Positions 10,027-55,591 are shown, numbered from the stretch's first letter. The stretch: 64,000 nt of DNA from Candidatus Aenigmatarchaeota archaeon (GCA_038999725.1 JAWBWS010000001.1:160001-224000); one strand, 5' to 3'. The notes: generated by a model not told the origin, from the sequence alone. Numbers and translations are program-made.

Positions 10027-12729
10027 TTAATTAAAAGCAAAAAACTTTGATTTTATTTCTCCGAAGTAAAAGTTAACCTCTCCGCCACAAACCGTACATT
10101 TACCAACTAGCGGAACCCTTCTGTAGCTTGTGTTGCACTTGAGACAAACTACTCCTTCTACACTAGTGAGTGAAACACTTTCACTTTTCTTATGATTGTC
10201 TATGGCTTCTCCCAATACCATTTGCTTGCCGAGACCAATCAATTTAGTCCTAGGTATACCAATTGCTTCAAAAACTCTTTCTAATGGTGGTAAAATCTGA
10301 CTTTCAATGTAATAACGTGAATCTATTTTCAAACCATGTTTTTTAACATATTCTGGGTCTTCCGCCCTTTCGGAAACCATTTGTGCCCCTTTAACTATAA
10401 CAAACCCTACCCTATCACCAATCGAAGGAATTGTCGTCTCTCCTCTTTTTTTCATCCTCTTCACTAACTCAATGTGTGGTTGAACTCCTTTATATTGGTC
10501 AGGCCTCTTTGAAATTCCTTTTATTATAACAAGTTTTTCCAATGGGATTTGTCCATTCTGTAGTTTTTGTATCACATCTTTGAAATAAGTGAAAGCTTTT
10601 GCTGGATTTTGTTCCCTGAGTAAAATGTTCAGAACAGCCTCTTGTGTCTCGCTGACCAAATCACACCAATCTCTTCTCACAGTTTCTATTCCCTTCATCA
10701 CAATCTCATCTTTATATTGAGAATCAATCTTTTCAAAACTCCACCCAGCATATCTTTTTTTTGTTAGAATTAAAAGTGTTCTAAAAACATTCTCGACTTT
10801 GACTTTTAACTTCCCTTCAAATTTTTCATTTAGAAAATCTGCTATTTGATTGCCAATCTCTATTGCTTTATCTATGTCTCCTGTATCTGTTTTAACCATC
10901 ACAGAATCTGTGTCTCCATAAATCACTCTATACCTTGTGTTACTTTCAACAAGCTTTTTGGTTTCTTGAATGTAATATCTCCCACAACTTGTGATTGCGT
11001 TTGCTATATCCAAAACATAAAGTCTTCCAAGTAAAAATCCTGTATAGCCATAAGAGGCGTTTGCTATTCTTTTAAGTCCCTCTTGGTATGCATCTAAAGC
11101 CCTTTTTCTCACGGGATCTTTTTCAACTTTCATTTGAGCTTTAATCATATTTCTTTCTTTTATCAATCTTTCAAGAGTTTGGGGAATTATCCCTTTTCTA
11201 ATACTTGGTGGAATGAAAGAAGTACCAAATGGTGTTGTTATTGCTTCTACCCCTTCCTTTTTCTCAATCAATAAAGTTGTTGGGCAGATGTTGTAAGAAA
11301 TGAAAATTGAAGGGTACATGCTTGCAAAATCTAAATAAATGACACATGTTGTATGTAAACCAACTTCAGGATCAAGAACGAAAGCTCCTTTAAACCCTTT
11401 CACATCTCTCTCTGCTTTTCTTCTTGCAATCTCCTTTTCAGATGGTTTACAAGGTAGAACAAATCCATTTTTGTCGAACTCCCTTAAAAGTAGATTTTCG
11501 ACTTTTCCAGCTTCTCCGGTATCCAAAGAATCTTGTAATAACAAACCAGAAACTTTGGAAATTCCTATGTATTTGTCTAGAAAGTGTTTTTCTAAAAGTA
11601 ATCTCAAAACAAGCTCAGAATCTCTTCTCGCATAATCTATAAATCTTTTCATCTGCTCTTCATTACCATTCCAAGCAATTGGCATATCTGTGTGAGAAAA
11701 TTCAATTTTTTCTTCACCTAAAAGATATTTTGAGACCTCTCCCAAGCTAAATCTTTTTAGACCTGTGAAAAAACCTCTTCCAGCCATATCTTTTATTATC
11801 CAATATGGGTCTACTATTACCCTTCCAAAAACGGAATTTTTATATCTATTTTCCCCCAACTTTTTCGAAACAAGTGATTTTTCAACACATCTTCCTATAC
11901 TCCTTCTCAATTTATTAATTCTCAATCTCTCGTTGATGTATGGTATGTCAAAATCATTAATGTTATATCCAACTATTATATCAGGATCGAATTTATCAAT
12001 TATTTCTAAAAACTTTTCAAGCATCTCTTTTTCATTCTTAAAAGTTAAAACATCCTTACCTAGTCTTTTGAAATTATTTTTTGCTACTAGAATGAGTGTG
12101 TTACTACCATCAAAAGCCGGGAAAAAAGCCATACTTATTATAGCTATTTGGTTTTCCTCTGGATTTATTATCCCTTCAGAAACTACTTCTATATCCAAGG
12201 CCATATACCTTAGGGGGGCATTCTCTATTTTCTCCACAGGCTCGATTTTTTCCATTTTAATTGATTGATCCACTTTTATACTTTGTGTATGTATTGGTGA
12301 ACCATATACTTTATACCACGACATGCCAAAAAGTGAAAAATCTGCCATAAATCTGTATTTGAAGAGTATGTCTGCCTCAAAAATATCTTCAATAAAGTCC
12401 TTCTTCCTCAAATGCTCCCTTAATGTAACTGTCTTAGATGGATCTTTAAGCACAACTTTCAACATTTCTTTTTTCTTTTCTTGAAAACCTATCGGTAAAT
12501 TTCTCTCTACAATTTCTATGTTTTTTATCTCATTAGTGAAATTCTTCTTAAGTTCATCAATAACTTTTTCTTCCATTCCTTCTTTTGGTAAAATATAAAA
12601 ATATGGATAAAAGCCGTCATAAAAAGCACAAATTGTTCTTCCGTCTTCTGCCTTCCCTAAAAGTCTTATAACAGGACGATTCTCGAGAAGAATGTAATCA
12701 ACATCTAAAAGTTGAAACTCCAATTCCAT
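10027..12729 (-). CDS. polB: Family B DNA polymerase with C-terminal DP2-like C4 Zn finger
   Basis: Exo I/II/III (DIE, YNINDFD, YARRD) and polymerase motifs (DFASMYPS, KRIANASYG, YGDTDS) intact; C-terminal CLKCNTSYRRVPLVGKCTVCGG. Confidence 0.95.
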   Translation of the reverse strand: MELEFQLLDVDYILLENRPVIRLLGKAEDGRTICAFYDGFYPYFYILPKEGMEEKVIDELKKNFTNEIKNIEIVERNLPIGFQEKKKEMLKVVLKDPSKTVTLREHLRKKDFIEDIFEADILFKYRFMADFSLFGMSWYKVYGSPIHTQSIKVDQSIKMEKIEPVEKIENAPLRYMALDIEVVSEGIINPEENQIAIISMAFFPAFDGSNTLILVAKNNFKRLGKDVLTFKNEKEMLEKFLEIIDKFDPDIIVGYNINDFDIPYINERLRINKLRRSIGRCVEKSLVSKKLGENRYKNSVFGRVIVDPYWIIKDMAGRGFFTGLKRFSLGEVSKYLLGEEKIEFSHTDMPIAWNGNEEQMKRFIDYARRDSELVLRLLLEKHFLDKYIGISKVSGLLLQDSLDTGEAGKVENLLLREFDKNGFVLPCKPSEKEIARRKAERDVKGFKGAFVLDPEVGLHTTCVIYLDFASMYPSIFISYNICPTTLLIEKKEGVEAITTPFGTSFIPPSIRKGIIPQTLERLIKERNMIKAQMKVEKDPVRKRALDAYQEGLKRIANASYGYTGFLLGRLYVLDIANAITSCGRYYIQETKKLVESNTRYRVIYGDTDSVMVKTDTGDIDKAIEIGNQIADFLNEKFEGKLKVKVENVFRTLLILTKKRYAGWSFEKIDSQYKDEIVMKGIETVRRDWCDLVSETQEAVLNILLREQNPAKAFTYFKDVIQKLQNGQIPLEKLVIIKGISKRPDQYKGVQPHIELVKRMKKRGETTIPSIGDRVGFVIVKGAQMVSERAEDPEYVKKHGLKIDSRYYIESQILPPLERVFEAIGIPRTKLIGLGKQMVLGEAIDNHKKSESVSLTSVEGVVCLKCNTSYRRVPLVGKCTVCGGEVNFYFGEIKSKFFAFN

Positions 12730-18605: not shown

Positions 18606-19407
18606 TGTGATAGGAGCTATATTTGGTCAAACAGAAGGTTTATTAGGTCAAGATTTGGATCTAAGGGAGCTCCAAAGGACGGGTAGAATTGGAAGAATAG
18701 AGGTAGAAATTTCAAACGAGAATGGAAAAACATTTGGGAAGATTTTCCTACCATCAAGTCTAGACAGCTCTGAAACTGCTCTCATAGCAGCTTCTTTGGA
18801 AACAATAGAAAGAATAGGGCCTTGTATGGCAACGGTTAAGGTAATTTCTGTTAGGGATGTAAGGGCGATGAAAAGGGAATTCATGTTGAACAGGGCAAAA
18901 GATATTCTTGGAAAATTGATGACAGAAGAAATACCACCAACCTCAACTCTCACAGAAATTATTAGAGAAGAGGTTAAGAAGTCCCAAATAAAGGATTATT
19001 TCAATCTTCCAGCAGGTCCAGATGTTGAAAGTTCTGATGAAATAATCATAGTGGAAGGCAGGGCGGATGTTTTAAATCTTCTTAAAAATGGGATTAAAAA
19101 TGTGATTGCAATAGAGGGTGCAAAGGTACCCCAACCAATAATTGACCTAATGAAAGAAAAAATAACTACATTGTTTGTCGATGGTGATAGAGGAGGGGAT
19201 TTGATAATCAAGGAAATTCTACAGGTTGGTGGAGTGGATTATATAGCAAGAGCACCTGAAGGAAAAGAGGTTGAAGAATTAACAAAAAAAGAGATATTTA
19301 AAGCTTTAAGGGAGAAGATACCCACTAGTCAATACAAACTTGAGCTGAAAACAAAAGAATTAAAAGATTTTATTCCAAAGAAGGATTCTCAAGAGAGTTC
19401 AGCTTGA
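18526..19407 (+). CDS. dnaG: Archaeal DnaG (short form)
   Basis: VEKPDVIGAIFGQTEGLLG, VEGRADV, DGDRGG and GKEVEEL motifs. Confidence 0.93.
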   Translation: MGKLAQSTIKYLIEAEFSTEGIVEKPDVIGAIFGQTEGLLGQDLDLRELQRTGRIGRIEVEISNENGKTFGKIFLPSSLDSSETALIAASLETIERIGPCMATVKVISVRDVRAMKREFMLNRAKDILGKLMTEEIPPTSTLTEIIREEVKKSQIKDYFNLPAGPDVESSDEIIIVEGRADVLNLLKNGIKNVIAIEGAKVPQPIIDLMKEKITTLFVDGDRGGDLIIKEILQVGGVDYIARAPEGKEVEELTKKEIFKALREKIPTSQYKLELKTKELKDFIPKKDSQESSA

Positions 19408-19925
19408 TGAAGCACTGAATAAACAGGACCAGTTTTCTTTAGTTCACTCTTTATCAATTGAATAGCATCAATAGTAAATTTACCATGGTTTTTATTTTCT
19501 TCAAACATCAATCTTCTTAGTTCATTCTTGTTTTTTACTTTTTTCACTCTACACAAGGTGATGTGAGGCGGTTTTGAATCACCTTCTATATTCTTATTCA
19601 CATCTTCAAAAATTAACTTTAAGTTACCAGTTTTATCAAAAACATCAAGTGCAATCACTCTAATATAACTCTCATTTGGTATTGCTTTCAATTTTCCAAT
19701 CTCAACTTCAAATTTCTTGAATTTTTTACTGATGATATTTATTTTTTCAGAGATTTCTTTAATCTGGTTTTCTTCGATTTCTCCAAGGAAAGAGAAACTT
19801 AAGTGTAAATTTTCCCTTTCAACCATTTTACCTACAATAGGCCATTCTTTCATCTGATTTTGTAATTTTACAATTTCATCTTTTGTATCTTCAGGAAGCA
19901 AGTAACCTATGAAGCATCTCACCAT
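19389..19925 (-). CDS. thpR: RNA 2',3'-cyclic phosphodiesterase (2H family)
   Basis: Two Hx(S/T) motifs (HLSF, HITL); SEL..GPVY. Confidence 0.9.
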   Translation of the reverse strand: MVRCFIGYLLPEDTKDEIVKLQNQMKEWPIVGKMVERENLHLSFSFLGEIEENQIKEISEKINIISKKFKKFEVEIGKLKAIPNESYIRVIALDVFDKTGNLKLIFEDVNKNIEGDSKPPHITLCRVKKVKNKNELRRLMFEENKNHGKFTIDAIQLIKSELKKTGPVYSVLHQAELS

Positions 19926-20255: not shown

Positions 20256-21266
20256 TTAATTCCCCTTCCATTTAAACCATTTTATATCATCTATTCTCCA
20301 TTTTGGTTTTATTATATCATTAAACTCAGGTTTCCATCCTGCTTTATAAGCCAGTAAACCAGTCCAGGCTGTCATAACTCCATTATCTCCACTATATTCA
20401 GCAGGTACTACAAACATCTTTGCCATTCTTTCTACACACATTTTCTTCATCATATCTTGTAGTCTTTTGTTTGCTGCTACCCCACCAACCAACAAAACCT
20501 CATTTTTTTCTGTATGGGCTAAAGCTCTTTCTGTAACTTCGGTTAACATGGCAAAACAAGTCTCTTGTAGAGAATAAGCAATATCTTCTTTAGCAACACC
20601 TCTTTTAAACAAATTGATAGCAGCAGTAGCTATCCCACTATAACTTACATCCATCCCCTTAACCACATAAGGTAGCTCAACATATTTTCCATTTTTTGCT
20701 AATTTTTCTATTTCAGGACCTCCTGGCATTGGTAAATTCATTTCTCTTGCAACAACATCCAAACAATTACCAATTGGTATGTCTTCTGTTTCACCAAAGA
20801 TTCTGTAGACAGAATCAACAAAAGCTATTATTTGGGTGTTACCTCCAGACAAATAAACAAAGATAGGGTCTTCGGCTCTTGTTGTCAGAAGACCAATTTC
20901 AAGATGTGAAAGTTGATGGCAAACAGGAATTAAAGGTTTGTTGTTTTTTCTAGAAAGTTCTCTAGCAAAATTGGCGCCTACCAATAAACAAGGTGGCAAG
21001 CCAGCACCAGCAGTATAAGCTACTATATCTATATCTTCAATCTTCAAGTTAGCTTTTTCAAATGCTTTTTTTAAAACCATTTGAGAAACTTTTTCATGAT
21101 GCAACTTTGCTTCATTTGGTACAATACCCTTCCCTAATGATGGCGTGTAAATGCTTTTTTCGTCTGCTAAAATTTCTCCCCTCTCGTTTACAATCCCTAT
21201 CCCAAATGTATGAGCACTCGACTCAATTCCAAGGCAAATTAACCCTTCTTTTGTCATTTCACTCAA
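20256..21266 (-). CDS. kae1: KEOPS subunit Kae1 (t6A synthase)
   Basis: GIESSAHT, HxxxH, SGGNTQ, VGGVAAN and DNGVM motifs. Confidence 0.95.
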   Translation of the reverse strand: MSEMTKEGLICLGIESSAHTFGIGIVNERGEILADEKSIYTPSLGKGIVPNEAKLHHEKVSQMVLKKAFEKANLKIEDIDIVAYTAGAGLPPCLLVGANFARELSRKNNKPLIPVCHQLSHLEIGLLTTRAEDPIFVYLSGGNTQIIAFVDSVYRIFGETEDIPIGNCLDVVAREMNLPMPGGPEIEKLAKNGKYVELPYVVKGMDVSYSGIATAAINLFKRGVAKEDIAYSLQETCFAMLTEVTERALAHTEKNEVLLVGGVAANKRLQDMMKKMCVERMAKMFVVPAEYSGDNGVMTAWTGLLAYKAGWKPEFNDIIKPKWRIDDIKWFKWKGN

Positions 21267-25790: not shown

Positions 25791-25875
25791 TGGGGTTGCT
25801 GGGATTTGAACCCAGATTGCCAGCGCTCTCTCTATTACCCGAGGCTGGTGTCCTACCAAGTTAGACTACAACCCC
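25791..25875 (-). tRNA. tRNA-Pro(CGG) with 12-nt intron at 37/38 (25826-25837)
   Basis: Acceptor GGGGTTG/CAACCCC, anticodon arm CCAGC-CT-CGG-G|intron|C-GCTGG, T-loop TTCAAAT. Confidence 0.92.
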
Positions 25876-25891
25876 TTAATTAGGAATTGGT

Positions 25892-26485
25892 TTATTGTTT
25901 TATTTCTAAAGTTATTTTCACTTTAGTTTGTGGATTCTTCAATTTTTCAATCAAGGTTTGTTTAAGCTCGTTAGCAGATTTTTCAGAGAAAATAGCAACA
26001 GTTTTCCCATCAACAAAAGAATCTTTTCTTATAACAACTTCTTCTTTGCTTGTAAGCTTAAGGGCAGGCGAACCATAAGCAGAAAAAATTTCTTCTTCAC
26101 CATCGACCTCAATTTTTATTTCAACCCTTCTAGCACTTTTGATAGCAGTCTTAAAATCATCACTCAAATCCTTACAAGCCTTATCTGCTTTAACAACAAT
26201 TGTTGCATCATCAACTTCTAGACTCTTTGTTATTCTTATTATAGAGTTGTCAATAGCCTTAATTTCTGGATGACCATAACCAAAAATTTCTTCTTTTATA
26301 GGTTTTAATTCCATCAAAAGTTTCCAACCACTTTCTGTTGGAATGTAAGCCCCACCAGCTGTGTAGTGGATCATTCCTTTACTTTCTAAAATTTCAAGAA
26401 CATCTTTAACCATCTCAGGAGTAATAACTGGTGATGGCTCTGGAGCGATTTCAGGTGGCCCTTGCATTTTTCTCATTTCCTTCAT
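25892..26485 (-). CDS. DUF371-like protein with N-terminal extension
   Basis: GYGHPEIKA, ADKAC, VIRKDSFVDGKT and SANEL motifs. Confidence 0.7.
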   Translation of the reverse strand: MKEMRKMQGPPEIAPEPSPVITPEMVKDVLEILESKGMIHYTAGGAYIPTESGWKLLMELKPIKEEIFGYGHPEIKAIDNSIIRITKSLEVDDATIVVKADKACKDLSDDFKTAIKSARRVEIKIEVDGEEEIFSAYGSPALKLTSKEEVVIRKDSFVDGKTVAIFSEKSANELKQTLIEKLKNPQTKVKITLEIKQ

Positions 26486-27240
26486 TTTATTTTCCTCGCA
26501 AAAGTTATGAAGCCTGTATGCATTACTCCCATAGTCTTTGGTCTCGTCGTCCTTTCAGTTTGCCACTCCCTTACTATATTTTCTACAGTCTTAATATAAG
26601 AAAAGTTTAACTCCCTTATTTTTTTTGTTGCAGCAATCATTTCTTCTACTGTTGGTGAATAAACGGCAAGCCAACCACCAACCTTTAGAGCTTTGTAAGC
26701 ATGTTTTACAATCTTTTCAGGATTTTTTATGTCAACAGTCACAAGATCAACATTTTTCTCAGAAATTCCTTTACTCGCATCTTTGTTTTTAATCCTAATG
26801 AATTTGGAGAGACCAAAAGATTCGACATTTTTCTTTGCTATTTTTACCATTCTCTCATCTTTCTCATAACTCACAATTTTGCCAGGTTTTATATAATTTG
26901 CTAAAAAGATTGCTAAAAAGCCTGAACCTGTTCCCACATCGACTACAAAGCTTCCTGGTTCAATGCCCGTGAGAGCTAAAATTGAGGCAGCATCTTTTGG
27001 CATTATTATTTGTGGACCTCTTTCAGCCTTTTTCTCTAAGAAATCAATCAGGTTTGGTTTAACTATTCTGAATTCTTTCTTAAGGTGGGTTTCTATTTTA
27101 TCACCAATTTTTTTCTTCAAAATTTCATTCAAATCAAAGATTCCGTCTTTTGTTGAAAACCTTCCTTTCCCAACTTCTACTAAATAAGAAGAATTTTTCG
27201 ACAAAAGCAAAACCAACTCTCCTTCTTTCAAGAAAATCAC
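26482..27240 (-). CDS. trmI: tRNA (adenine-57/58-N1)-methyltransferase
   Basis: PQIIMPKD, VGTGSG, YSP and HTGFITFARK motifs. Confidence 0.92.
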   Translation of the reverse strand: MIFLKEGELVLLLSKNSSYLVEVGKGRFSTKDGIFDLNEILKKKIGDKIETHLKKEFRIVKPNLIDFLEKKAERGPQIIMPKDAASILALTGIEPGSFVVDVGTGSGFLAIFLANYIKPGKIVSYEKDERMVKIAKKNVESFGLSKFIRIKNKDASKGISEKNVDLVTVDIKNPEKIVKHAYKALKVGGWLAVYSPTVEEMIAATKKIRELNFSYIKTVENIVREWQTERTTRPKTMGVMHTGFITFARKIK

Positions 27241-28484: not shown

Positions 28485-29558
28485 ATGCGTGCTTACCTGG
28501 TTACAACCTTCATAGGAGTTTTTGGTATCAGCGAAGATGGAAAAATAATTCATTTTGAACCTTTTCCTAAAGATTCAGAAAAAATAGCAGAGAAGCTTAT
28601 GGCCTCAGAGAAAGAAATTATAGAGGAAGAAGAAAAAGTACAGGATTTGTTAAAGAGGAAAGGATTTGAGGAAATTATCTTTTCGATTGAGAAGCCAGGT
28701 GTTACATATCAAAAAGAAAATGAAGCGGAAATGTTCATCAGAGAAAACCTGCGAAATTTAGCTTTGAAATACAAGTTTGTTAAAGATCAAGTGGAATTTA
28801 ACCAACTTCTGAGTAAAGTTGGCATAGAAATTACAAAATCCAAGATTAAGAAAGCAATAGAAAAGGATAGTTTTGTCATCCAAATTGCAAGGGTGATAGA
28901 GGATATAGATAAAACGACAAACACACTAATCGAAAGGTTAAGAGAGCTTTATAGTTTACATTTTCCAGAAATGGGTAAAATGGTGCAAGATCATAAGAAA
29001 TACGCTAATATAATTGAAAAATATGGGTCAAAAGAAAGAATAGAAGATCCAGAGCTAAAAGAAATTGCCAAGAGAAGCATGGGAGTCGAGTTTAGAGAGG
29101 ATGAAATAAAAGCCGCTCAATTGCTTGCAACTGAGGTTTTAAATCTTTATAAGTTAAAGGATGCTCTATCAAAACAATTGGAAAAAATTTTGAAAGAAAT
29201 TGCACCGAATTTTACAGAACTAGCAGGTCCCATGCTTTCTGCCAAGCTTATTGCTAAAGCTGGTGGTCTTGAGAAGTTGGCTAAAATGCCGTCAAGTGCC
29301 ATTCAACTTATGGGTGCGGAAAAAAGTCTTTTCAGATTTTTACATGGTAAAGGTAAATCACCGAGGTTTGGAATTATTTTTAATCACCCCTTGGTTTTAA
29401 GTGCACCAGAGAAACTCAAAGGCAAAGTGGCAAGAATAGTTGCCTCAAAACTCTCTATTGCAGCGAAGCTTGATTTTTATTCAAAAGAATACAGAGGAGA
29501 TAAGATGAAGAGGGAAATGGAAGATAAGGTTAAAAAAGCCTTATCTTCTAAATCTTAA
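28485..29558 (+). CDS. nop5: Box C/D sRNP protein Nop5
   Basis: ERLRELYSLHFPE, APN, PSSAIQLMGAEKSLF and GKVAR motifs. Confidence 0.95.
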   Translation: MRAYLVTTFIGVFGISEDGKIIHFEPFPKDSEKIAEKLMASEKEIIEEEEKVQDLLKRKGFEEIIFSIEKPGVTYQKENEAEMFIRENLRNLALKYKFVKDQVEFNQLLSKVGIEITKSKIKKAIEKDSFVIQIARVIEDIDKTTNTLIERLRELYSLHFPEMGKMVQDHKKYANIIEKYGSKERIEDPELKEIAKRSMGVEFREDEIKAAQLLATEVLNLYKLKDALSKQLEKILKEIAPNFTELAGPMLSAKLIAKAGGLEKLAKMPSSAIQLMGAEKSLFRFLHGKGKSPRFGIIFNHPLVLSAPEKLKGKVARIVASKLSIAAKLDFYSKEYRGDKMKREMEDKVKKALSSKS

Positions 29559-29780
29559 TCTTTTTTCAATCAAAAAATAAACAAAAACTCCAAAAACTCC
29601 AAGAATTAAACAAATTGCTAACCAAACTAACTTGTATTTTGTATTTTTTTTGGATTTAAAAATGTCTATCATAGCTGGTAAAAAGGCCACTACGCTTACA
29701 ATTCCATAAATTTGCAACAGTACAAACAACAAATTTATCAGATATTCAAATTCAACCATATAAATATATTCTTCTTCCAA
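29541..29780 (-). CDS. Small membrane protein (PLDc N-terminal-like)
   Basis: AMIDIFKS...KLVWLAICLILGVFGVFVYFL; start may be the ATG at 29759. Confidence 0.65.
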   Translation of the reverse strand: MEEEYIYMVEFEYLINLLFVLLQIYGIVSVVAFLPAMIDIFKSKKNTKYKLVWLAICLILGVFGVFVYFLIEKRLRFRR

Positions 29781-29915: not shown

Positions 29916-30587
29916 ATGCAAGTTAAACCACATAAGTTTGATGGCATTTATAGAATTAATAACAAAATAGCTACAATAAACCTCACGCCTGGTAGAAGTG
30001 TTTATGGTGAGAGGTTAATTAAGATTAATAATGTAGAATATAGAGAATGGGTCCCATTCCGTTCAAAACTTTGTGCAGCTGTAATGAAAAAAATCAAGTT
30101 TTTTCCATTTAAAAAGGGTTCAAAAGTTCTTTATTTGGGAGCTGGCTCAGGAACCACAATTAGCCACATAAGCGATATTATTGGGAGAGATGGCATCATT
30201 TATGCTGTTGAGATCTCAGAGCATCCATTACGTGATTTAGTTGGTTTGGCAGAGCTTAGACAAAATATAGTTCCAATACTTGCGGATGCAAGATTGGTAG
30301 AAACATATGAAAACATGATAATGGAAAAAGTTGACGTAATTTATGAAGATGTTGCTGATCCTGACCAAATAAAAATTCTAATAAGAAATGCTGAGAAGTT
30401 CTTAAAAACAGATGGATTTTTAGAAATAGCCATCAAATCTCAAAGCATCAGTTCAACAAAACCTCCAAAAGAAGTTTATGAGGAATGTTTGAAAGAGTTG
30501 GGGGAACACTTTGAAATTTTGGATAAAGTAGAGTTGGAGCCTTATGAAAAGTTCCATTTGTTCGTTGTATTGAAATCCAAGAAATAA
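29916..30587 (+). CDS. flpA: Fibrillarin rRNA/tRNA 2'-O-methyltransferase
   Basis: VYGE, YREWVPFRSKL, VLYLGAGSGTTISH and NIVPILADA motifs. Confidence 0.96.
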   Translation: MQVKPHKFDGIYRINNKIATINLTPGRSVYGERLIKINNVEYREWVPFRSKLCAAVMKKIKFFPFKKGSKVLYLGAGSGTTISHISDIIGRDGIIYAVEISEHPLRDLVGLAELRQNIVPILADARLVETYENMIMEKVDVIYEDVADPDQIKILIRNAEKFLKTDGFLEIAIKSQSISSTKPPKEVYEECLKELGEHFEILDKVELEPYEKFHLFVVLKSKK

Positions 30588-38337: not shown

Positions 38338-38502
38338 TGCAGGGGGTGGGATTCGAACCCACGAACGGACTAACCGATCAGGTAACTAATACTCTCATCA
38401 TCCATAACTCAGGGCTTAAGTCTGGAGAGCATCTTAAGCTCACGCGAATATTGTTTTAAACAATATTCTCTGACGCCTTTGACCAGACTTGGCTACCCCT
38501 GC
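38338..38502 (-). tRNA. tRNA-Leu(TAA) with two introns (30/31: 38440-38469; 37/38: 38384-38432)
   Basis: Acceptor GCAGGGG/CCCCTGC, D arm GCC..GGC, long variable arm CGG/CCG, T-loop TTCGAAT; removing both inserts gives TCAGG-CT-TAA-GA-CCTGA. Confidence 0.88.
38384..38432 (-). ncRNA. Putative intron-encoded box C/D guide RNA
   Basis: CTTAAGCC guide, CTGA (box D), 7-nt spacer, ATGATGA (box C), enclosed by a TGCTCTC/GAGAGTA stem. Confidence 0.6.
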
Positions 38503-41014: not shown

Positions 41015-41112
41015 TGGACCGGCCGGGATTCGAACCCGGAGCCTCTTCATAGCAGTTAAACTCATGCCTTTTCCACAATTAAGGAAGCGATCTACCATTG
41101 ATCTACCGGCCC
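41015..41112 (-). tRNA. tRNA-Ala(GGC) with two non-canonical introns (33/34: 41069-41080; 39/40: 41049-41062)
   Basis: Acceptor GGGCCGG/CCGGTCC with G3:U70; removing both inserts gives CTTCC-TT-GGC-AT-GGAAG; both inserts fit bulge-helix-bulge geometry. Confidence 0.88.
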
Positions 41113-41495: not shown

Positions 41496-41864
41496 TCACT
41501 TTTTAAGAGCTTCTATTTTTTCTATGATTTCTTTCAGAGCTTCTTTAGAATCTCCAGGTTCAACTATACAAGCAGCAGAACATGCAACATCTATCCCAAC
41601 AGCTCTTCCAAGTTCTTGTTTACTAGTAACATACCCATATGGGATTTTCTTTTCCTCGCAAAGAACAGGCAGATGCATTACTATCTCTTCCGGTTCTACA
41701 TCTTCCGCTATTGCAACAAACTTTGCAATTCCTCTTTCTACAGCTTTCGTTGTCTCATTCATACCCTTCTTAATCTTGCCACTATTCTTTGCTGTTTCAA
41801 TAGTTTGTAATATCCTTGTTTTCAAATCTTTCGGCAATTCAAACTTCACATAAGCTTTCCCCAC
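41496..41864 (-). CDS. rpl7ae: Ribosomal protein L7Ae (K-turn binding)
   Basis: [23 protein letters not shown] and LGRAVG motifs. Confidence 0.97.
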
Positions 41865-44826: not shown

Positions 44827-45660
44827 TCACAATTCATCCAAAGGGCTTTTAATTTTCTTCAACTCCTCTCTTGAAATGTGAGTATAGATTTGAGTGGTAT
44901 TAAGGGAGGAGTGCCCCAACAATTCTTGTATCTTTCTTATATTTTCTCCAGCTTCAAGCAAGTGGGTAGCAAAGGAGTGTCTAAATGTATGTGGACTAAT
45001 TTTTTTATTTATATTGGCTTTTTTAATAGCACTCGCAACAATTTTTTGTATAGTTCTAGGGGAAATCTTTCCCTTTCTACCCTTAAAAACATACTCTTCA
45101 AGGCTTCTACCCTCAAGAAAACCTTTAATTTTTTCAACCACTCTTTCAGAAAGGATGAACATCCTATCTTTCTCCCCCTTCCCCGTTCTTACCCATCCAA
45201 TTCTCTCTTCCAATTCCAAATCCCCAACTCTTAAATTGATTAGTTCGCTTAATCTTAATCCAGAAGAATAGAGCATCATCACAATCAACTTATGCTTTTC
45301 ATTTTCAATTGAATCAATTATTTTTTTTACCTCTTCTCTTGTTAAAACTGTGGGGAGTTTCTTCGGAACTTTCGGAGATTTGAAGTTAACAATACCTTTT
45401 TTGAGGACTTCATCATAAAAAAACTTTAGCGCAGCTTTTATCAAAACTATGGACTTAGGGGAGACACCTTCCTCCATTTTTTTCGCAATAAAAGCTTTTA
45501 TGTCATCCTCATTTACATCTTCAGGATTCTTTTTTATAAATTCTAGAAATTTTTGGTTGTAGAATAAATACATCTTTAAAGTCCTCTCGGAAAACCCTCT
45601 AAGTTTAATTTCATTTTCTAGTTTTTGTAGAGCATCCATAATAAATTCATATGGAGTCAA
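44827..45660 (-). CDS. xerA: XerA-like tyrosine recombinase
   Basis: Catalytic set intact: GLRLSE, GKG.K, HTFRHSFATH, LGH...TTQIY. Confidence 0.9.
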   Translation of the reverse strand: MTPYEFIMDALQKLENEIKLRGFSERTLKMYLFYNQKFLEFIKKNPEDVNEDDIKAFIAKKMEEGVSPKSIVLIKAALKFFYDEVLKKGIVNFKSPKVPKKLPTVLTREEVKKIIDSIENEKHKLIVMMLYSSGLRLSELINLRVGDLELEERIGWVRTGKGEKDRMFILSERVVEKIKGFLEGRSLEEYVFKGRKGKISPRTIQKIVASAIKKANINKKISPHTFRHSFATHLLEAGENIRKIQELLGHSSLNTTQIYTHISREELKKIKSPLDEL

Positions 45661-45694: not shown

Positions 45695-46900
45695 ATGAAC
45701 ATTTTAATCGAAAGGTTTAACTCCATACCATTATTTGAGCAAAAGACGGAGATAGTGGAGAGGAAGGGACTAGGTCACCCTGATTTCATTTGTGATTCTA
45801 TAGTTGATAGGATTTCTGTAGCTTTAAGTAAAGAATATCTCAAAAGATTTGGTCAAATTTTACATCACAATATAGATAAGGCTCTACTTGCAGCAGGAGA
45901 GGCAGAAAACAAGTTCGGCGGTGGTAAAATTCTTAAACCCATGAAGCTGATTATCGGTGACAGGGCAACCTATTTTGTTGGTGCCGAAGAAATTGATGTG
46001 AGCTCAATTGCGATAAAAACTGCAAAAAACTGGATAAAAGAAAATCTGAGATTCCTTGATGCCGAAAAACATGTAGAATATCAGGTAGAGTTGAAGCAAG
46101 TTTCTGCAGCTTTGGCTGAAATTTTCAAAAAGAAGGATGAAATCCTTGGTGCAAATGATACTTCTGCTGTCGTTGGTTATGCTCCTTTAACACCAACAGA
46201 AAGAATTGTTCTAGAAACTGAAAAATTCCTAAATTCAAAGGAATTCAAGAAAAGATATCCAGAGTCAGGAGAAGACATCAAAGTTATGGGTTTGAGAGTC
46301 AACAACAATCTAGATCTTACAATAGCCATGGCTTTTATCGATCGTTTCATCGACTCAGAAGACACTTACTTCAAAAGAAAGGAGGAAATTTTAGAGGAGA
46401 TTAAACAATTTCTAAAAGAAAAAACTGACTTTAATATAAAAGGAATTAAACTCAATACTCTAGACGAAAGAGGTAAGGGTGAAGCCGGTTTATTCTTAAC
46501 CACAACAGGTACTTGTGCCGAAGCTGCAGATTCAGGACAAGTTGGAAGGGGCAATAGGGTCAATGGAGTAATTTCTTTGAATAGACCAGCTGGAAATGAA
46601 GCCGGCCCAGGAAAAAATCCTGTAAGCCATGTAGGCAAAATCTACAACCTGCTTAGTCATGATATTGCAAACGAGATTTTTTCAAAAGTTAATGGGGTGA
46701 AAGAAGTTTATGTTTGGCTGTTAAGTGAGATAGGAAGGCCAATCAATGACCCAAAAATCGTGATAGTTCAATATATACCAGAAACTGAAAACAATCTTCA
46801 GAGAATACAGAAAGAAGCTGAAGAAATTGTTCAGAGCAGACTGGAGAACATTCAAAGCTTTTGTAAACTTTTGGCAGAGGGGAAGCTTAGCGTCTGTTAA
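45695..46900 (+). CDS. mat: Archaeal-type S-adenosylmethionine synthetase
   Basis: ERKGLGHPD, ANDTS, GEDIKVMG and GKNPVSHVGKIYN motifs. Confidence 0.96.
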   Translation: MNILIERFNSIPLFEQKTEIVERKGLGHPDFICDSIVDRISVALSKEYLKRFGQILHHNIDKALLAAGEAENKFGGGKILKPMKLIIGDRATYFVGAEEIDVSSIAIKTAKNWIKENLRFLDAEKHVEYQVELKQVSAALAEIFKKKDEILGANDTSAVVGYAPLTPTERIVLETEKFLNSKEFKKRYPESGEDIKVMGLRVNNNLDLTIAMAFIDRFIDSEDTYFKRKEEILEEIKQFLKEKTDFNIKGIKLNTLDERGKGEAGLFLTTTGTCAEAADSGQVGRGNRVNGVISLNRPAGNEAGPGKNPVSHVGKIYNLLSHDIANEIFSKVNGVKEVYVWLLSEIGRPINDPKIVIVQYIPETENNLQRIQKEAEEIVQSRLENIQSFCKLLAEGKLSVC

Positions 46901-53107: not shown

Positions 53108-55591
53108 TTATTCATCCTTTTTAAAAAAGCTTAATATTTTTTTCTGTTTCTTTTCATTTAAAATTTCCTCTTTTGTTATTCCAAGAGCTTTTAAGACACG
53201 CATGCTAGCAGGAAGAATTTGATGATGAGTGTAATATTCAGGATCATACTCACCAGGTTTGACATCTTCAACAGGTTCGGCTCTATCTGAAATTGAGCCA
53301 GATCCCTTTACTATCACAAAACCTATAATACTTCCCTCACCTACAAGCTTTCCTCTAGCTCTTGCTTTCTGTGCTGCTTTTACATGAGGCCCGATTTGCT
53401 CATATTGACTTAATGGGCGAGTAATTTGCTCAAAGATTGTTAATTCTTCTAACGGAATTTTTCCCTCTTTAATTTTTTTGATAGTTTCTCTCACAAGCTG
53501 GATAGCTTTGTCAGGATTTTTGTCTCTCAAAATCGTGATTAATACATCTCTTTGAATTTTCTTACTCAATTCACACCAATCTCTCCTTACTGCTTCATAT
53601 CCTCTTATTTCAATGTTGCCATTGTAATCTAGAAGTGCATATCTTTTTTTAGCTCCAACCTCACCTTTTTCTCTTGCAACAAATATTCCACCTTCGTACA
53701 AATCTCTGAATTCCAACTCTATTATACCCGGCAGCTTATTATTGACTTTTTCTACAAATTTTCTACCCACCTCAATCAATTTTTCTCTCGATTTTTCCGG
53801 ATATTTTGCCATTAGCGAATCTGTATCACCGTAAATTATTTCTAGACCAAATTTTTTGGCTTCATCAATCACAGTTGTAATATACTTTCTACCCCATGCA
53901 GCTGTTGCAGCACCACATTCCCTTTTATACCATTTTGCACCTACAAAACCAAAATACCCATAAGAGGCATTTGCAATTATCTTTAAAGCATATTGAAGAT
54001 TGTCCAACTTCTTCCATTCTTCACTGTTTTTTTCAAGTTTTTTCATCATCTTTTTGATTTCCAACCTTTTTTTAATCAGCTCTTCCAAATGTTTTGGTAT
54101 GAACCCTTTGTTTTTTATACAAAAATGCCATTTGGTCTCCGGTACTGCATTTTTTTCTTTACATTCTTCATGATTGCAGTTTAGAGTTTCTGGGGAAATG
54201 TTATGAGAAACTATTATCGTTGGATACAAACTTCTAAAATCAAAAACCAAGATGTCTGAATGAATTCCTTTTTTTGGCTCAATCACTATTGCCCCCTTGT
54301 AAGCTGGGGACATTTTCCTCTTCTCTATTTCTTCTGTTTTTGGTCTGTTTGGTATAATCACATCATCAAGAAAAGCCCTTCTCATGTAAAAAGCTTCTAC
54401 AAGCTGGGAATAGGTGTTTCTACATACATCAAACGGTAAAAGGCCCGTCAACCTACTAATAGCAAAAATTTGTGGTAATATCAGCTCAGAAAGTTTGAAA
54501 GTTAATATGGAATCATGTAAGCTGTATTCAGCTAGTCTTTCTAAACCCTTTTTCTTAGTCCAAATTTCAACCATTTCCTTGTATTCCATCTCTTTTTTAC
54601 CTATTCCAAGTAACTCTTCTGCAACCTCATTTAAAGTTAAAACCTCACTTTTCAAGCTTGTTGATAGGATGTGATCAATAAAATTGAATAGGTCTATGTG
54701 TACTCTACCTTTAATTTTGGTTGAGCTTACTCTCCCCCTTCTAACTAAATGTATTGGAGAATTATCTCTCCCAAGTTTTAAGGGAACTTTCAGTTCTTCT
54801 GCCCTTTCTTTAAGTTTAGGAAAATCAAAATTGTCACCATTATAAGTGCATATGAAATCAGGATCCTCCTTTTCCACAATTTCCAAAAACCTTTCTATTA
54901 TTTCTCTCTCTTCTTTGAGAGATTCTACATAATCTGGTTGGTTTTCCCAACACTCGGAAGTTAAGACCTTTTTCATCCCTCTGCTTGAAACAAGACTTAA
55001 CATAATCAGTTTCGATTTTCCATTTTCCTCTACAAATTCTGTATCAAAAGCTAAAACATTTAGCTCAACATCTGTTGGTAAACTTTCTTGTTTTACTACT
55101 TTTATAGAGTTGGCTTTAATTATGTAATCCGCTTTATAGTTTTCTTTATTTTCTATTTTCTTCCCATCAACTTTAATCCAGTTCATAGGCTCAATTTGTT
55201 TGTCTATCAAGTAACGCTTGTAGAAAGGAATATCATACTCGTAAGTTTCTTCTACATCTTCCAATTCCTTCACAATATTTCTGATGTTTTGAATTTTCCT
55301 TGGATTGTCAATTACCAATTTTAAAATTTTTATCTTCTCGAGTTGTAATTTTTTTTCCGTTGTTATAACTTCAACTATCTTGATGTTTACATCTTTTGTA
55401 TTAACCTCTTCAATTTTTTTCTTAACCTCTTCAATTTTGTTTTTCTTAGGCAACACATAAAAGTATGGGTAAAAATCTTGGTCTAGAACCAAACAGTTTT
55501 TACCTTTAGAATCTTTACAATAAAGCCTAACAACAGGTTTTTCTTCCATTACAGTATAGTCGACATCTAAAAGAAACAAATTTTCTTCCAA
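53108..55591 (-). CDS. polB: Family B DNA polymerase (canonical PolB3-like)
   Basis: YEYDIPFYKRYLID, FDTE, YNGDNFD, DFRSLYPT, KIIANASYGY and YGDTDS motifs; C-terminal PIP box QKKILSFF. Confidence 0.96.
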   Translation of the reverse strand: MEENLFLLDVDYTVMEEKPVVRLYCKDSKGKNCLVLDQDFYPYFYVLPKKNKIEEVKKKIEEVNTKDVNIKIVEVITTEKKLQLEKIKILKLVIDNPRKIQNIRNIVKELEDVEETYEYDIPFYKRYLIDKQIEPMNWIKVDGKKIENKENYKADYIIKANSIKVVKQESLPTDVELNVLAFDTEFVEENGKSKLIMLSLVSSRGMKKVLTSECWENQPDYVESLKEEREIIERFLEIVEKEDPDFICTYNGDNFDFPKLKERAEELKVPLKLGRDNSPIHLVRRGRVSSTKIKGRVHIDLFNFIDHILSTSLKSEVLTLNEVAEELLGIGKKEMEYKEMVEIWTKKKGLERLAEYSLHDSILTFKLSELILPQIFAISRLTGLLPFDVCRNTYSQLVEAFYMRRAFLDDVIIPNRPKTEEIEKRKMSPAYKGAIVIEPKKGIHSDILVFDFRSLYPTIIVSHNISPETLNCNHEECKEKNAVPETKWHFCIKNKGFIPKHLEELIKKRLEIKKMMKKLEKNSEEWKKLDNLQYALKIIANASYGYFGFVGAKWYKRECGAATAAWGRKYITTVIDEAKKFGLEIIYGDTDSLMAKYPEKSREKLIEVGRKFVEKVNNKLPGIIELEFRDLYEGGIFVAREKGEVGAKKRYALLDYNGNIEIRGYEAVRRDWCELSKKIQRDVLITILRDKNPDKAIQLVRETIKKIKEGKIPLEELTIFEQITRPLSQYEQIGPHVKAAQKARARGKLVGEGSIIGFVIVKGSGSISDRAEPVEDVKPGEYDPEYYTHHQILPASMRVLKALGITKEEILNEKKQKKILSFFKKDE

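Follow-up and report, generated by a model that had tools for sequence, protein, structure and literature searches.

A probable single-K-loop box C/D guide for the wobble nucleotide in the second intron of an archaeal tRNA-Leu(UAA) gene

The second intron of the tRNA-Leu(UAA) gene in the analysed stretch of DNA (64 kb, hereafter the window) is probably a natural half-mer box C/D guide with a single K-loop, serving 2'-O-methylation of nucleotide 34, here U34 of its own tRNA. The original prediction of a minimal single-guide C/D element directed at the host's own U34 agrees with what we found in relatives, where boxes and spacing are conserved, the antisense tracks the anticodon and the register falls on nucleotide 34, a pattern seen in eight tRNA species and in over 100 genomes; methylation would be the expected outcome of this arrangement. 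Because the second box motif is missing, we class the element as a variant box C/D guide (half-mer, intron-borne, self-targeting at N34).

Anatomy of the tRNA-Leu(UAA) gene and its introns

The cloverleaf scores above the Rfam threshold of the tRNA covariance model (Table 1), which identifies the gene as a tRNA gene. ARAGORN in default mode called no tRNA anywhere within the window, and with the intron option, run over the whole genome, it assigned several anticodons wrongly, so that genes were parsed by hand. The parse yields two introns; introns at the position of the first are also present in orthologues. The span from 38384 to 38439, to which the original prediction refers, comprises the micro-exon G31-G37 together with intron 2.

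Table 1 Features of the tRNA-Leu(UAA) gene, other module-bearing tRNA genes of the genome, and protein genes of the window.
Feature	Coordinates	Strand	Basis
tRNA-Leu(UAA) gene, 165 nt, two introns	38338..38502	minus	Rfam RF00005, 38.9 bits (cut-off 29); sequence; orthologues
Exon, nt 1-30	38502-38470	minus	hand parse of sequence
Intron 1, 30-nt hairpin between nt 30 and 31, without box motif	38469-38440	minus	parsed so that 27-31 (TCAGG) pairs with 39-43 (CCTGA)
Micro-exon G31-G37 (anticodon UAA = nt 34-36), antisense target	38439-38433	minus	sequence; register analysis on relatives
Intron 2, 49 nt, canonical 37/38 position	38432-38384	minus	sequence; bulge-helix-bulge conformer worked out on fold
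Putative guide (antisense) CTTAAGCC, complementary to nt 30-37	38420-38413	minus	fifth base from D' pairs with U34
Box D', CTGA	38412-38409	minus	sequence, pattern coordinates
7-nt loop closing the K-loop	38408-38402	minus	pattern coordinates
Box C', ATGATGA	38401-38395	minus	sequence, pattern coordinates
Intron tail: 3' strands of h' helix and central 4-bp helix, plus 3' bulge	38394-38384	minus	fold, manual reading
3' exon	38383-38338	minus	hand parse of sequence
tRNA-Met(CAU) with module	C4:61186-61291	+	own genome
tRNA-Lys(UUU) with module	C5:707-818	+	own genome
tRNA-Arg(UCU) with module	C2:124413-124522	-	own genome
tRNA-Trp(CCA) with module	C1:95336-95439	+	own genome
tRNA-Leu(CAA) with module	C1:78988-79105	+	own genome
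tRNA-Glu(UUC) with module	C7:276-382	-	own genome
tRNA-Gln(UUG) with module, D' variant CGGA	C1:67026-67137	-	own genome
Nop5 gene	28485..29558	+	Pfam PF01798 4.3e-61, PF21572
Fibrillarin gene (methyltransferase)	29916..30587	+	Pfam PF01269 1.7e-83
L7Ae gene (K-turn/K-loop binding protein)	41496..41864	-	Pfam PF01248 1.6e-30
SAM synthetase gene	45695-46900		window
Family-B DNA polymerase genes, two	10027-12729, 53108-55591	-	window
LigT-like 2',3'-phosphoesterase gene	19389-19925	-	window
Kae1/TsaD gene	20256-21266	-	window
GCD14/Trm61-like tRNA methyltransferase gene	26482-27240	-	window
Tyrosine-recombinase gene	44827-45660	-	window

On re-reading, the minus-strand intron sequence with its perfect CTGA and ATGATGA is exactly as first written. 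The claim of an antisense to G30-G37, with the fifth base from the D box on U34, stands as regards the register and has to be restricted as regards its length: because intron 1 splits G30 from G31, the contiguous guide duplex in the primary transcript is 7 bp (G31-G37), and it reaches 8 bp (nt 30-37) only once intron 1 has been removed. The CAGA that had been set apart in the upstream part of the intron is not conserved in orthologues and sits apically above the h' helix of the splicing motif.

The two boxes, 7 nt apart, conform to a K-loop (RUGAUGA and CUGA with tandem sheared G.A pairs), the pairing being read from the sequence alone. The antisense lies directly upstream of D' and pairs the target with its fifth base, in a duplex that is short, at 7-8 bp. 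Archaeal C/D RNAs normally show this succession of guide, D', short loop and C' at their internal K-loop, and in relatives the D'-C' spacer measures 0-7 nt, as in internal C'/D' K-loops. Since D', loop and C' already constitute a K-loop arrangement, circularisation is not required to join the boxes, and the description of the intron as a circularly permuted C/D RNA is unneeded.

A bipartite architecture, with a terminal C/D in addition to the internal C'/D', was not found: neither this intron nor the family has a second box pair at spacings of about 12 nt. Two candidates for additional motifs were rejected. The CCTGA found in the 3' exon belongs to the anticodon stem, where relatives have CCTGC or another sequence; a second K-turn, made from the last GA of C' and the upstream CAGA, would call for a bulge of 4 nt, would have to share with the K-loop a box that both need, and relies on a CAGA that is not conserved. 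Even at a permissive threshold, no curated Rfam C/D family matched above its cut-off; the best, snoPyro_CD, scored 13.3 bits, the cut-off being 45 (E = 4.8).

The box pair by itself is within chance and not significant. In the 64-kb window the pattern CTGA-N2-9-RTGATGA was met twice, where 0.6 occurrences are expected, and at least two were seen in 14 of 100 shuffles. What lies beyond chance is the location of the boxes inside a tRNA intron beside an in-register antisense, together with the conservation of this arrangement.

Intron 2 also folds, with its anticodon arm, into a nearly canonical bulge-helix-bulge, i.e. two 3-nt bulges with a 4-bp helix between them (manual reading on the predicted fold). 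Its parts are the anticodon stem, the bulge UU|A38, a central helix with one mismatch (C32-G, U33-A, U34xU, A35-U), the bulge A36 G37|A, and a 5-bp outer helix, in which the 5' end of the intron pairs with the bases just after C' and on top of which the guide module sits. In this predicted fold the central helix takes up the intron tail, not the antisense. Because both use nt 32-35, the guide duplex and the central splicing helix are mutually exclusive; the same exclusion of guide duplex and bulge-helix-bulge is described for pre-tRNA-Trp (PMC2584109).

Conservation, register and co-variation of the module

Sixty relatives were searched with a BLAST-type method, which yielded 30 loci, and the whole tRNA-Leu gene could be extracted from 22 of them. 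Comparison of the relatives' Leu introns, proposed as a check together with the original prediction, found boxes, guide and spacing conserved, with a clear module in 15 of the 18 Leu(UAA) and Leu(CAA) genes and a degenerate one in the other three; all four Leu(UAG) genes are without it. In a clear module the antisense is followed, after one free base, by (C/T)TGA or CAGA; a short loop leads on to (T)GATGA, and a brief tail, in most cases ending in AGAA, precedes the 3' splice site. The antisense changes with the anticodon, reading CTTAAGC for UAA and (C)TTGAGC for CAA. In the four same-genus orthologues antisense, boxes and spacing are kept, and loop, tail and 5' spacer differ from those of the window.

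The distribution of the module was assessed with a T-arm-anchored pattern that carries no antisense requirement. Within the organism's own order, the module was present in 114 of 117 genomes and in 46 of 46 genera (427 matches vs. 10 for the reversed-pattern control); in the phylum sample, every row of which belongs to the same class, it was present in 203 of 370 genomes, and in 89 of 253 outside the order. The genomes counted here are related, and hence are not independent observations. A scan of one genome per species gave at least 117 loci, at least 38 of them tRNA-Leu genes with a module. Among the matches listed, the module-bearing tRNA-Leu records are named Candidatus Aenigmatarchaeota archaeon (9), Nanoarchaeota archaeon (2) and Candidatus Parvarchaeota archaeon (1), and otherwise uncultured archaeon.

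In the genome of the window (729,769 bases in 9 contigs, 93% complete), the T-arm-anchored pattern gave 7 matches, or 8 with D' relaxed, none of them outside tRNA introns. A listing of the tRNA genes shows the module in eight of them including Leu(UAA), with D'+5 on nucleotide 34 in all of them by constant spacing, and these eight comprise the tRNAs for purine-ending codons of split boxes together with tRNA-Trp and tRNA-Met. The module-bearing introns measure 23-49 nt. Each of the eight host tRNAs (8/8) has a single antisense and a single D'/C' K-loop, with no second guide for U39 and no full set of C, D', C' and D. By hand reading, about 20 further intron-bearing tRNA genes of the genome are without the module, which therefore is not a general requirement for splicing.

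Three of the tRNA genes without the module may be listed individually. Two lie in the window (25791-25875 and 41015-41112, both on the minus strand); they have introns with no K-loop module, and Rfam finds both whereas ARAGORN in default mode finds neither. The third (C2:174920-175015, plus strand), known from hand reading only, has the anticodon loop CTTATA, the apparent anticodon UAU (Ile) and an intron without a module.

For the analysis of the register, we combined the loci of the orthologue, order and phylum-sample scans with sixty more regions and with the genome's seven remaining tRNA genes that have the module. Loci were picked without regard to the antisense, and nucleotide 34 was placed by means of U33 and of the acceptor and anticodon stems. 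Among the 144 module matches, 99 were non-redundant and could be resolved as tRNAs having a single canonical intron; the rest mostly had extra introns, C33 or imperfect stems. With D'+5 on nucleotide 34, 84 of the 99 modules pair at 6/7 or better (guide positions 2-8 vs. nt 31-37), compared with only 0-2 of 99 in each of ten shifted registers. The remaining 15 score below 6/7: nine introns of tRNA-Trp, which belong with the 84 to the 93 modules that fit, pair at 5/7, and six do not fit (CGU 3, GCA 2, and CUA 1, the CUA case being probably misparsed). By anticodon, the register-fitting modules are distributed as CCA 24, CAA 18, UUG 14, CAU 10, UAA 10, UCU 6, UUC 5, UUU 5 and UCC 1. In four tRNA-Leu(CAA) genes, the module is located in an intron 5' of nt 31, i.e. 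on the opposite side of the target, and the register on C34 is unchanged.

Several introns show other arrangements. Intron 1 of the window shares the position 5' of nt 31 but carries no boxes. Five longer introns, among them two of tRNA-Arg(CCU) and one of tRNA-Thr(CGU), have a long hairpin capped by a D'/C' K-loop, and their 5-bp antisense would place D'+5 on U36, not on nucleotide 34. Two introns of tRNA-Cys(GCA) have a K-loop preceded by bases (TGGTCT) that match the anticodon loop in no tested register.

The precision of the register bears on an alternative reading, in which the K-loop recruits L7Ae and the antisense masks the anticodon, so that the intron is a device for precursor folding, quality control or the timing of splicing and no methylation takes place. 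A K-loop alone suffices for archaeal L7Ae binding, and since the antisense and splicing conformers exclude each other, a bound protein could control when splicing occurs. The lack of a second box motif, moreover, is more in keeping with an RNP that has no catalytic role than with a canonical methyltransferase RNP (PMC1635284). Masking, however, has no need of an exact register, yet one is kept (84/99 vs. 0-2/99 when shifted), even with the intron on the opposite flank of its target. Further, the module is confined to tRNA species in which ribose methylation of N34 or wobble restriction is known elsewhere, whereas some 20 other intron-bearing tRNAs of this genome manage without it. Masking without methylation is thus an unlikely explanation.

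The antisense co-varies with its host. Across the 93 modules, nt 34-36 pair with the guide in 279 of 279 cases, whereas shuffled anticodons gave a mean of 160 pairs and reached 279 in none of 10000 trials. The pair between nt 34 and guide position 5 is C-G in 52 modules and U-A in 41, and nt 31 likewise co-varies with guide position 2. Five genes for tRNA-Glu(UUC) have C at the normally invariant position 33, with a matching G in the intron antisense. Among the boxes of the same 93 modules, D' is TTGA in 58, CTGA in 30, ATGA in 3, CAGA in 1 and CGGA in 1; C' ends in GATGA in 93/93, as the search pattern demanded, and AAGATGA is the commonest 7-mer (58/93). The GA dinucleotides of both boxes were fixed by the pattern, so their constancy is no test; on the established geometry of C/D K-turns, the first D' base (C/U) can pair with the constant G of C', and the second (U/A/G) with its constant U.

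The match of the antisense to the host anticodon identifies the host tRNA as the target. This speaks against the possibility that the excised intron acts mainly on other RNAs, or that the K-loop guide brings a different activity to nucleotide 34, such as a base-modifying enzyme. Specialised C/D snoRNPs do guide RNA base acetylation in yeast, according to a title cited in PMC7994747, and excised archaeal introns can persist as circles (PMC7994747). The N+5 geometry, however, is the hallmark of fibrillarin placement, fibrillarin and Nop5 are both encoded here, and no candidate alternative enzyme was identified; we give such other functions little credence. Finally, chance resemblance or a by-product of the bulge-helix-bulge structure is highly improbable: the box pair is at chance level in the window and archaeal introns must pair with the anticodon loop for the splicing motif, but the splicing helix uses the intron tail instead of the antisense, boxes, spacing and register are conserved over 46 genera with few control matches, and the antisense co-varies with the anticodon.

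Machinery, proposed mechanism and wobble chemistry

Pfam matches place nop5, fibrillarin and L7Ae in the window, as had been claimed from the outset (Table 1). Nop5 aligns end to end with the Sulfolobus Nop5 chains 3id5/3pla, and the alignment runs through the stretch that links the N-terminal and Nop domains, which is the coiled coil in Sulfolobus; on the strength of this alignment, it is plausible that a Nop5 dimer could bridge two half-mers. Half-mer RNAs have reportedly been crystallised with Sulfolobus Nop5, fibrillarin and L7Ae in the structures of the 3id5 family. The 357-nt gap between nop5 and the fibrillarin gene is mostly filled, on the opposite strand, by a hydrophobic ORF of 79 aa (29541-29780, minus strand).

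For the preferred reading, a methylation guide, we infer binding, methylation, the order of events and action in cis or in trans as follows. L7Ae would bind the K-loop formed by CUGA and AUGAUGA through the tandem G.A pairs, a U.U pair and a G-C pair, and Nop5-fibrillarin would dock onto the L7Ae-bound K-loop. The antisense of 7-8 nt would pair with nt 30/31-37 of the anticodon arm, either in the same precursor or, after excision of the intron, in another tRNA. Because guide position 2 pairs with nt 31, a member of the last anticodon-stem pair, the anticodon stem would have to breathe or the guide would have to act in trans. Fibrillarin would then methylate the 2'-OH of the nucleotide opposite the fifth guide base from D', i.e. 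U34. Refolding of the precursor to the bulge-helix-bulge, in which nt 32-35 pair with the intron tail, would exclude the guide duplex, and the intron would be cut out and the exons joined. What the cell would gain is probably a stiffened wobble nucleotide, one that avoids misreading codons with a final pyrimidine.

Pattern scans for canonical two-motif C/D sRNAs in the genome (regular expressions, not exhaustive) gave 0 matches with two full patterns, and a loose C...D pattern matched 14 times, compared with 10-15 times in shuffles. The sequencing runs listed for this DNA comprised six DNA runs from two studies and no RNA run.

U34-type modules, with a guide of the form ...AAG, were found in 112 of 370 genomes of the sample, with zero control matches, and Elp3 (PF16199) in 158 of the 370. 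Elp3 was not detected in the genome of the window, and 1 of the 7 genomes of its genus has it. Within the order, U34-type modules are present in 56 of 61 genomes without an Elp3 match vs. 26 of 56 with Elp3 (a hand tally on related genomes). In one family, U34-type modules occur in 0 of 23 genomes and Elp3 in 22 of 23, and only C34-type modules are present. The anticorrelation between U34-type modules and Elp3 is a trend and not an exclusion, driven largely by this family and confounded by relatedness. A clean either/or replacement between the two is ruled out by their co-occurrence in 26 genomes.

Taken jointly, the observations admit a broader reading, which we put forward tentatively, as possible rather than probable. 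A class of DPANN archaea, with records named Candidatus Aenigmatarchaeota, would use natural single-K-loop half-mer guides in tRNA introns for systematic ribose methylation of the wobble nucleotide in all tRNAs for purine-ending split-box codons (Leu UUR, Gln, Lys, Glu, Arg AGR) as well as in tRNA-Trp and tRNA-Met; since the pattern scans met no canonical C/D sRNA in this genome, such introns may supply most of the guide RNAs in these tiny cells, with the U34 guides partly replacing lost Elp3-type wobble chemistry.

Comparison with known guides and methyltransferases

In the literature that we searched ('C/D' being unsearchable as a term, and supplements outside the scope), no description was found of intron guides beyond Trp, nor of any in DPANN or Aenigmatarchaeota, nor of a natural conserved half-mer C/D guide. 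PMC4090602 terms the tRNA-Trp intron a 'unique example', and reviews of 2014, 2021 and 2024 speak of it as the single tRNA intron that encodes its own modification guide; the present findings would extend this to eight tRNA species and hundreds of genomes and offer a plausible reason to exist for many DPANN tRNA introns. If U34 of the Lys, Glu, Gln, Arg and Leu tRNAs is indeed methylated by intron guides, this would be a new RNA-programmed wobble restriction in minimal-genome organisms. The half-mers also provide a natural test of a long-standing question on C/D RNPs, namely whether a single box motif is able to place fibrillarin precisely, in a system small enough for in vitro reconstitution from three proteins and a precursor of about 135-165 nt.

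Protein-only N34 methyltransferases, bacterial TrmL and eukaryotic Trm7-Trm734, resemble the proposed guides in making the same product on overlapping substrates and differ in having no guide RNA. TrmL acts on tRNA-Leu CAA/UAA. As substrates of N34 ribose methyltransferases, PMC6847430 names tRNA-Leu, Trp and Phe. PMC7668247 reports Um34 and s2Um34 for the Gln(UUG) and Leu(UAG) tRNAs of Sulfolobus, and Cm34 in the Trp and Met tRNAs.

Engineered hemi or half-mer box C/D RNPs have, like the introns studied here, one K-turn-type motif and one guide, and they assemble and methylate; unlike these introns, they are laboratory constructs (PMC1635284). According to Hardin and Batey, such single-motif RNPs are active but lose site specificity, and the two-motif architecture is absolutely conserved in natural complexes (PMC1635284).

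Free-standing C/D sRNAs for N34, such as sR47, have the same targets and follow the same N+5 rule (PMC5558902, PMC7994747). The sR47 RNP methylates C34 of tRNA-Leu(CAA) in vitro (PMC5558902), and in Pyrococcus four C/D sRNAs are predicted to target N34 in tRNA-Leu(CAA), Leu(UAA), Met and Trp (PMC7994747), only the Trp guide being intronic (PMC7994747; PMC11408192). Whereas these free-standing genes have both C/D and C'/D' motifs, the element described here has a single motif inside the intron of its own target.

The euryarchaeal pre-tRNA-Trp intron (Haloferax volcanii; Pyrococcus sR50) has a guide in the 37/38 intron, an antisense to its own anticodon loop and N+5 on nucleotide 34, just as found here (PMC11408192, PMC7994747, PMC4090602, PMC2584109). 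The two also share mutually exclusive guide and bulge-helix-bulge conformers and the presumed machinery of L7Ae, Nop5 and fibrillarin. However, the pre-tRNA-Trp intron is a full two-motif, two-guide RNA of about 100 nt (C, D', C', D) that also targets U39, whereas the introns of this DPANN lineage combine one antisense and one D'/C' K-loop in 23-49 nt and occur in eight tRNA species, including the U34 tRNAs for Leu (UAA), Lys, Glu, Gln and Arg (UCU); even the tRNA-Trp intron of this genome carries the same minimal module.
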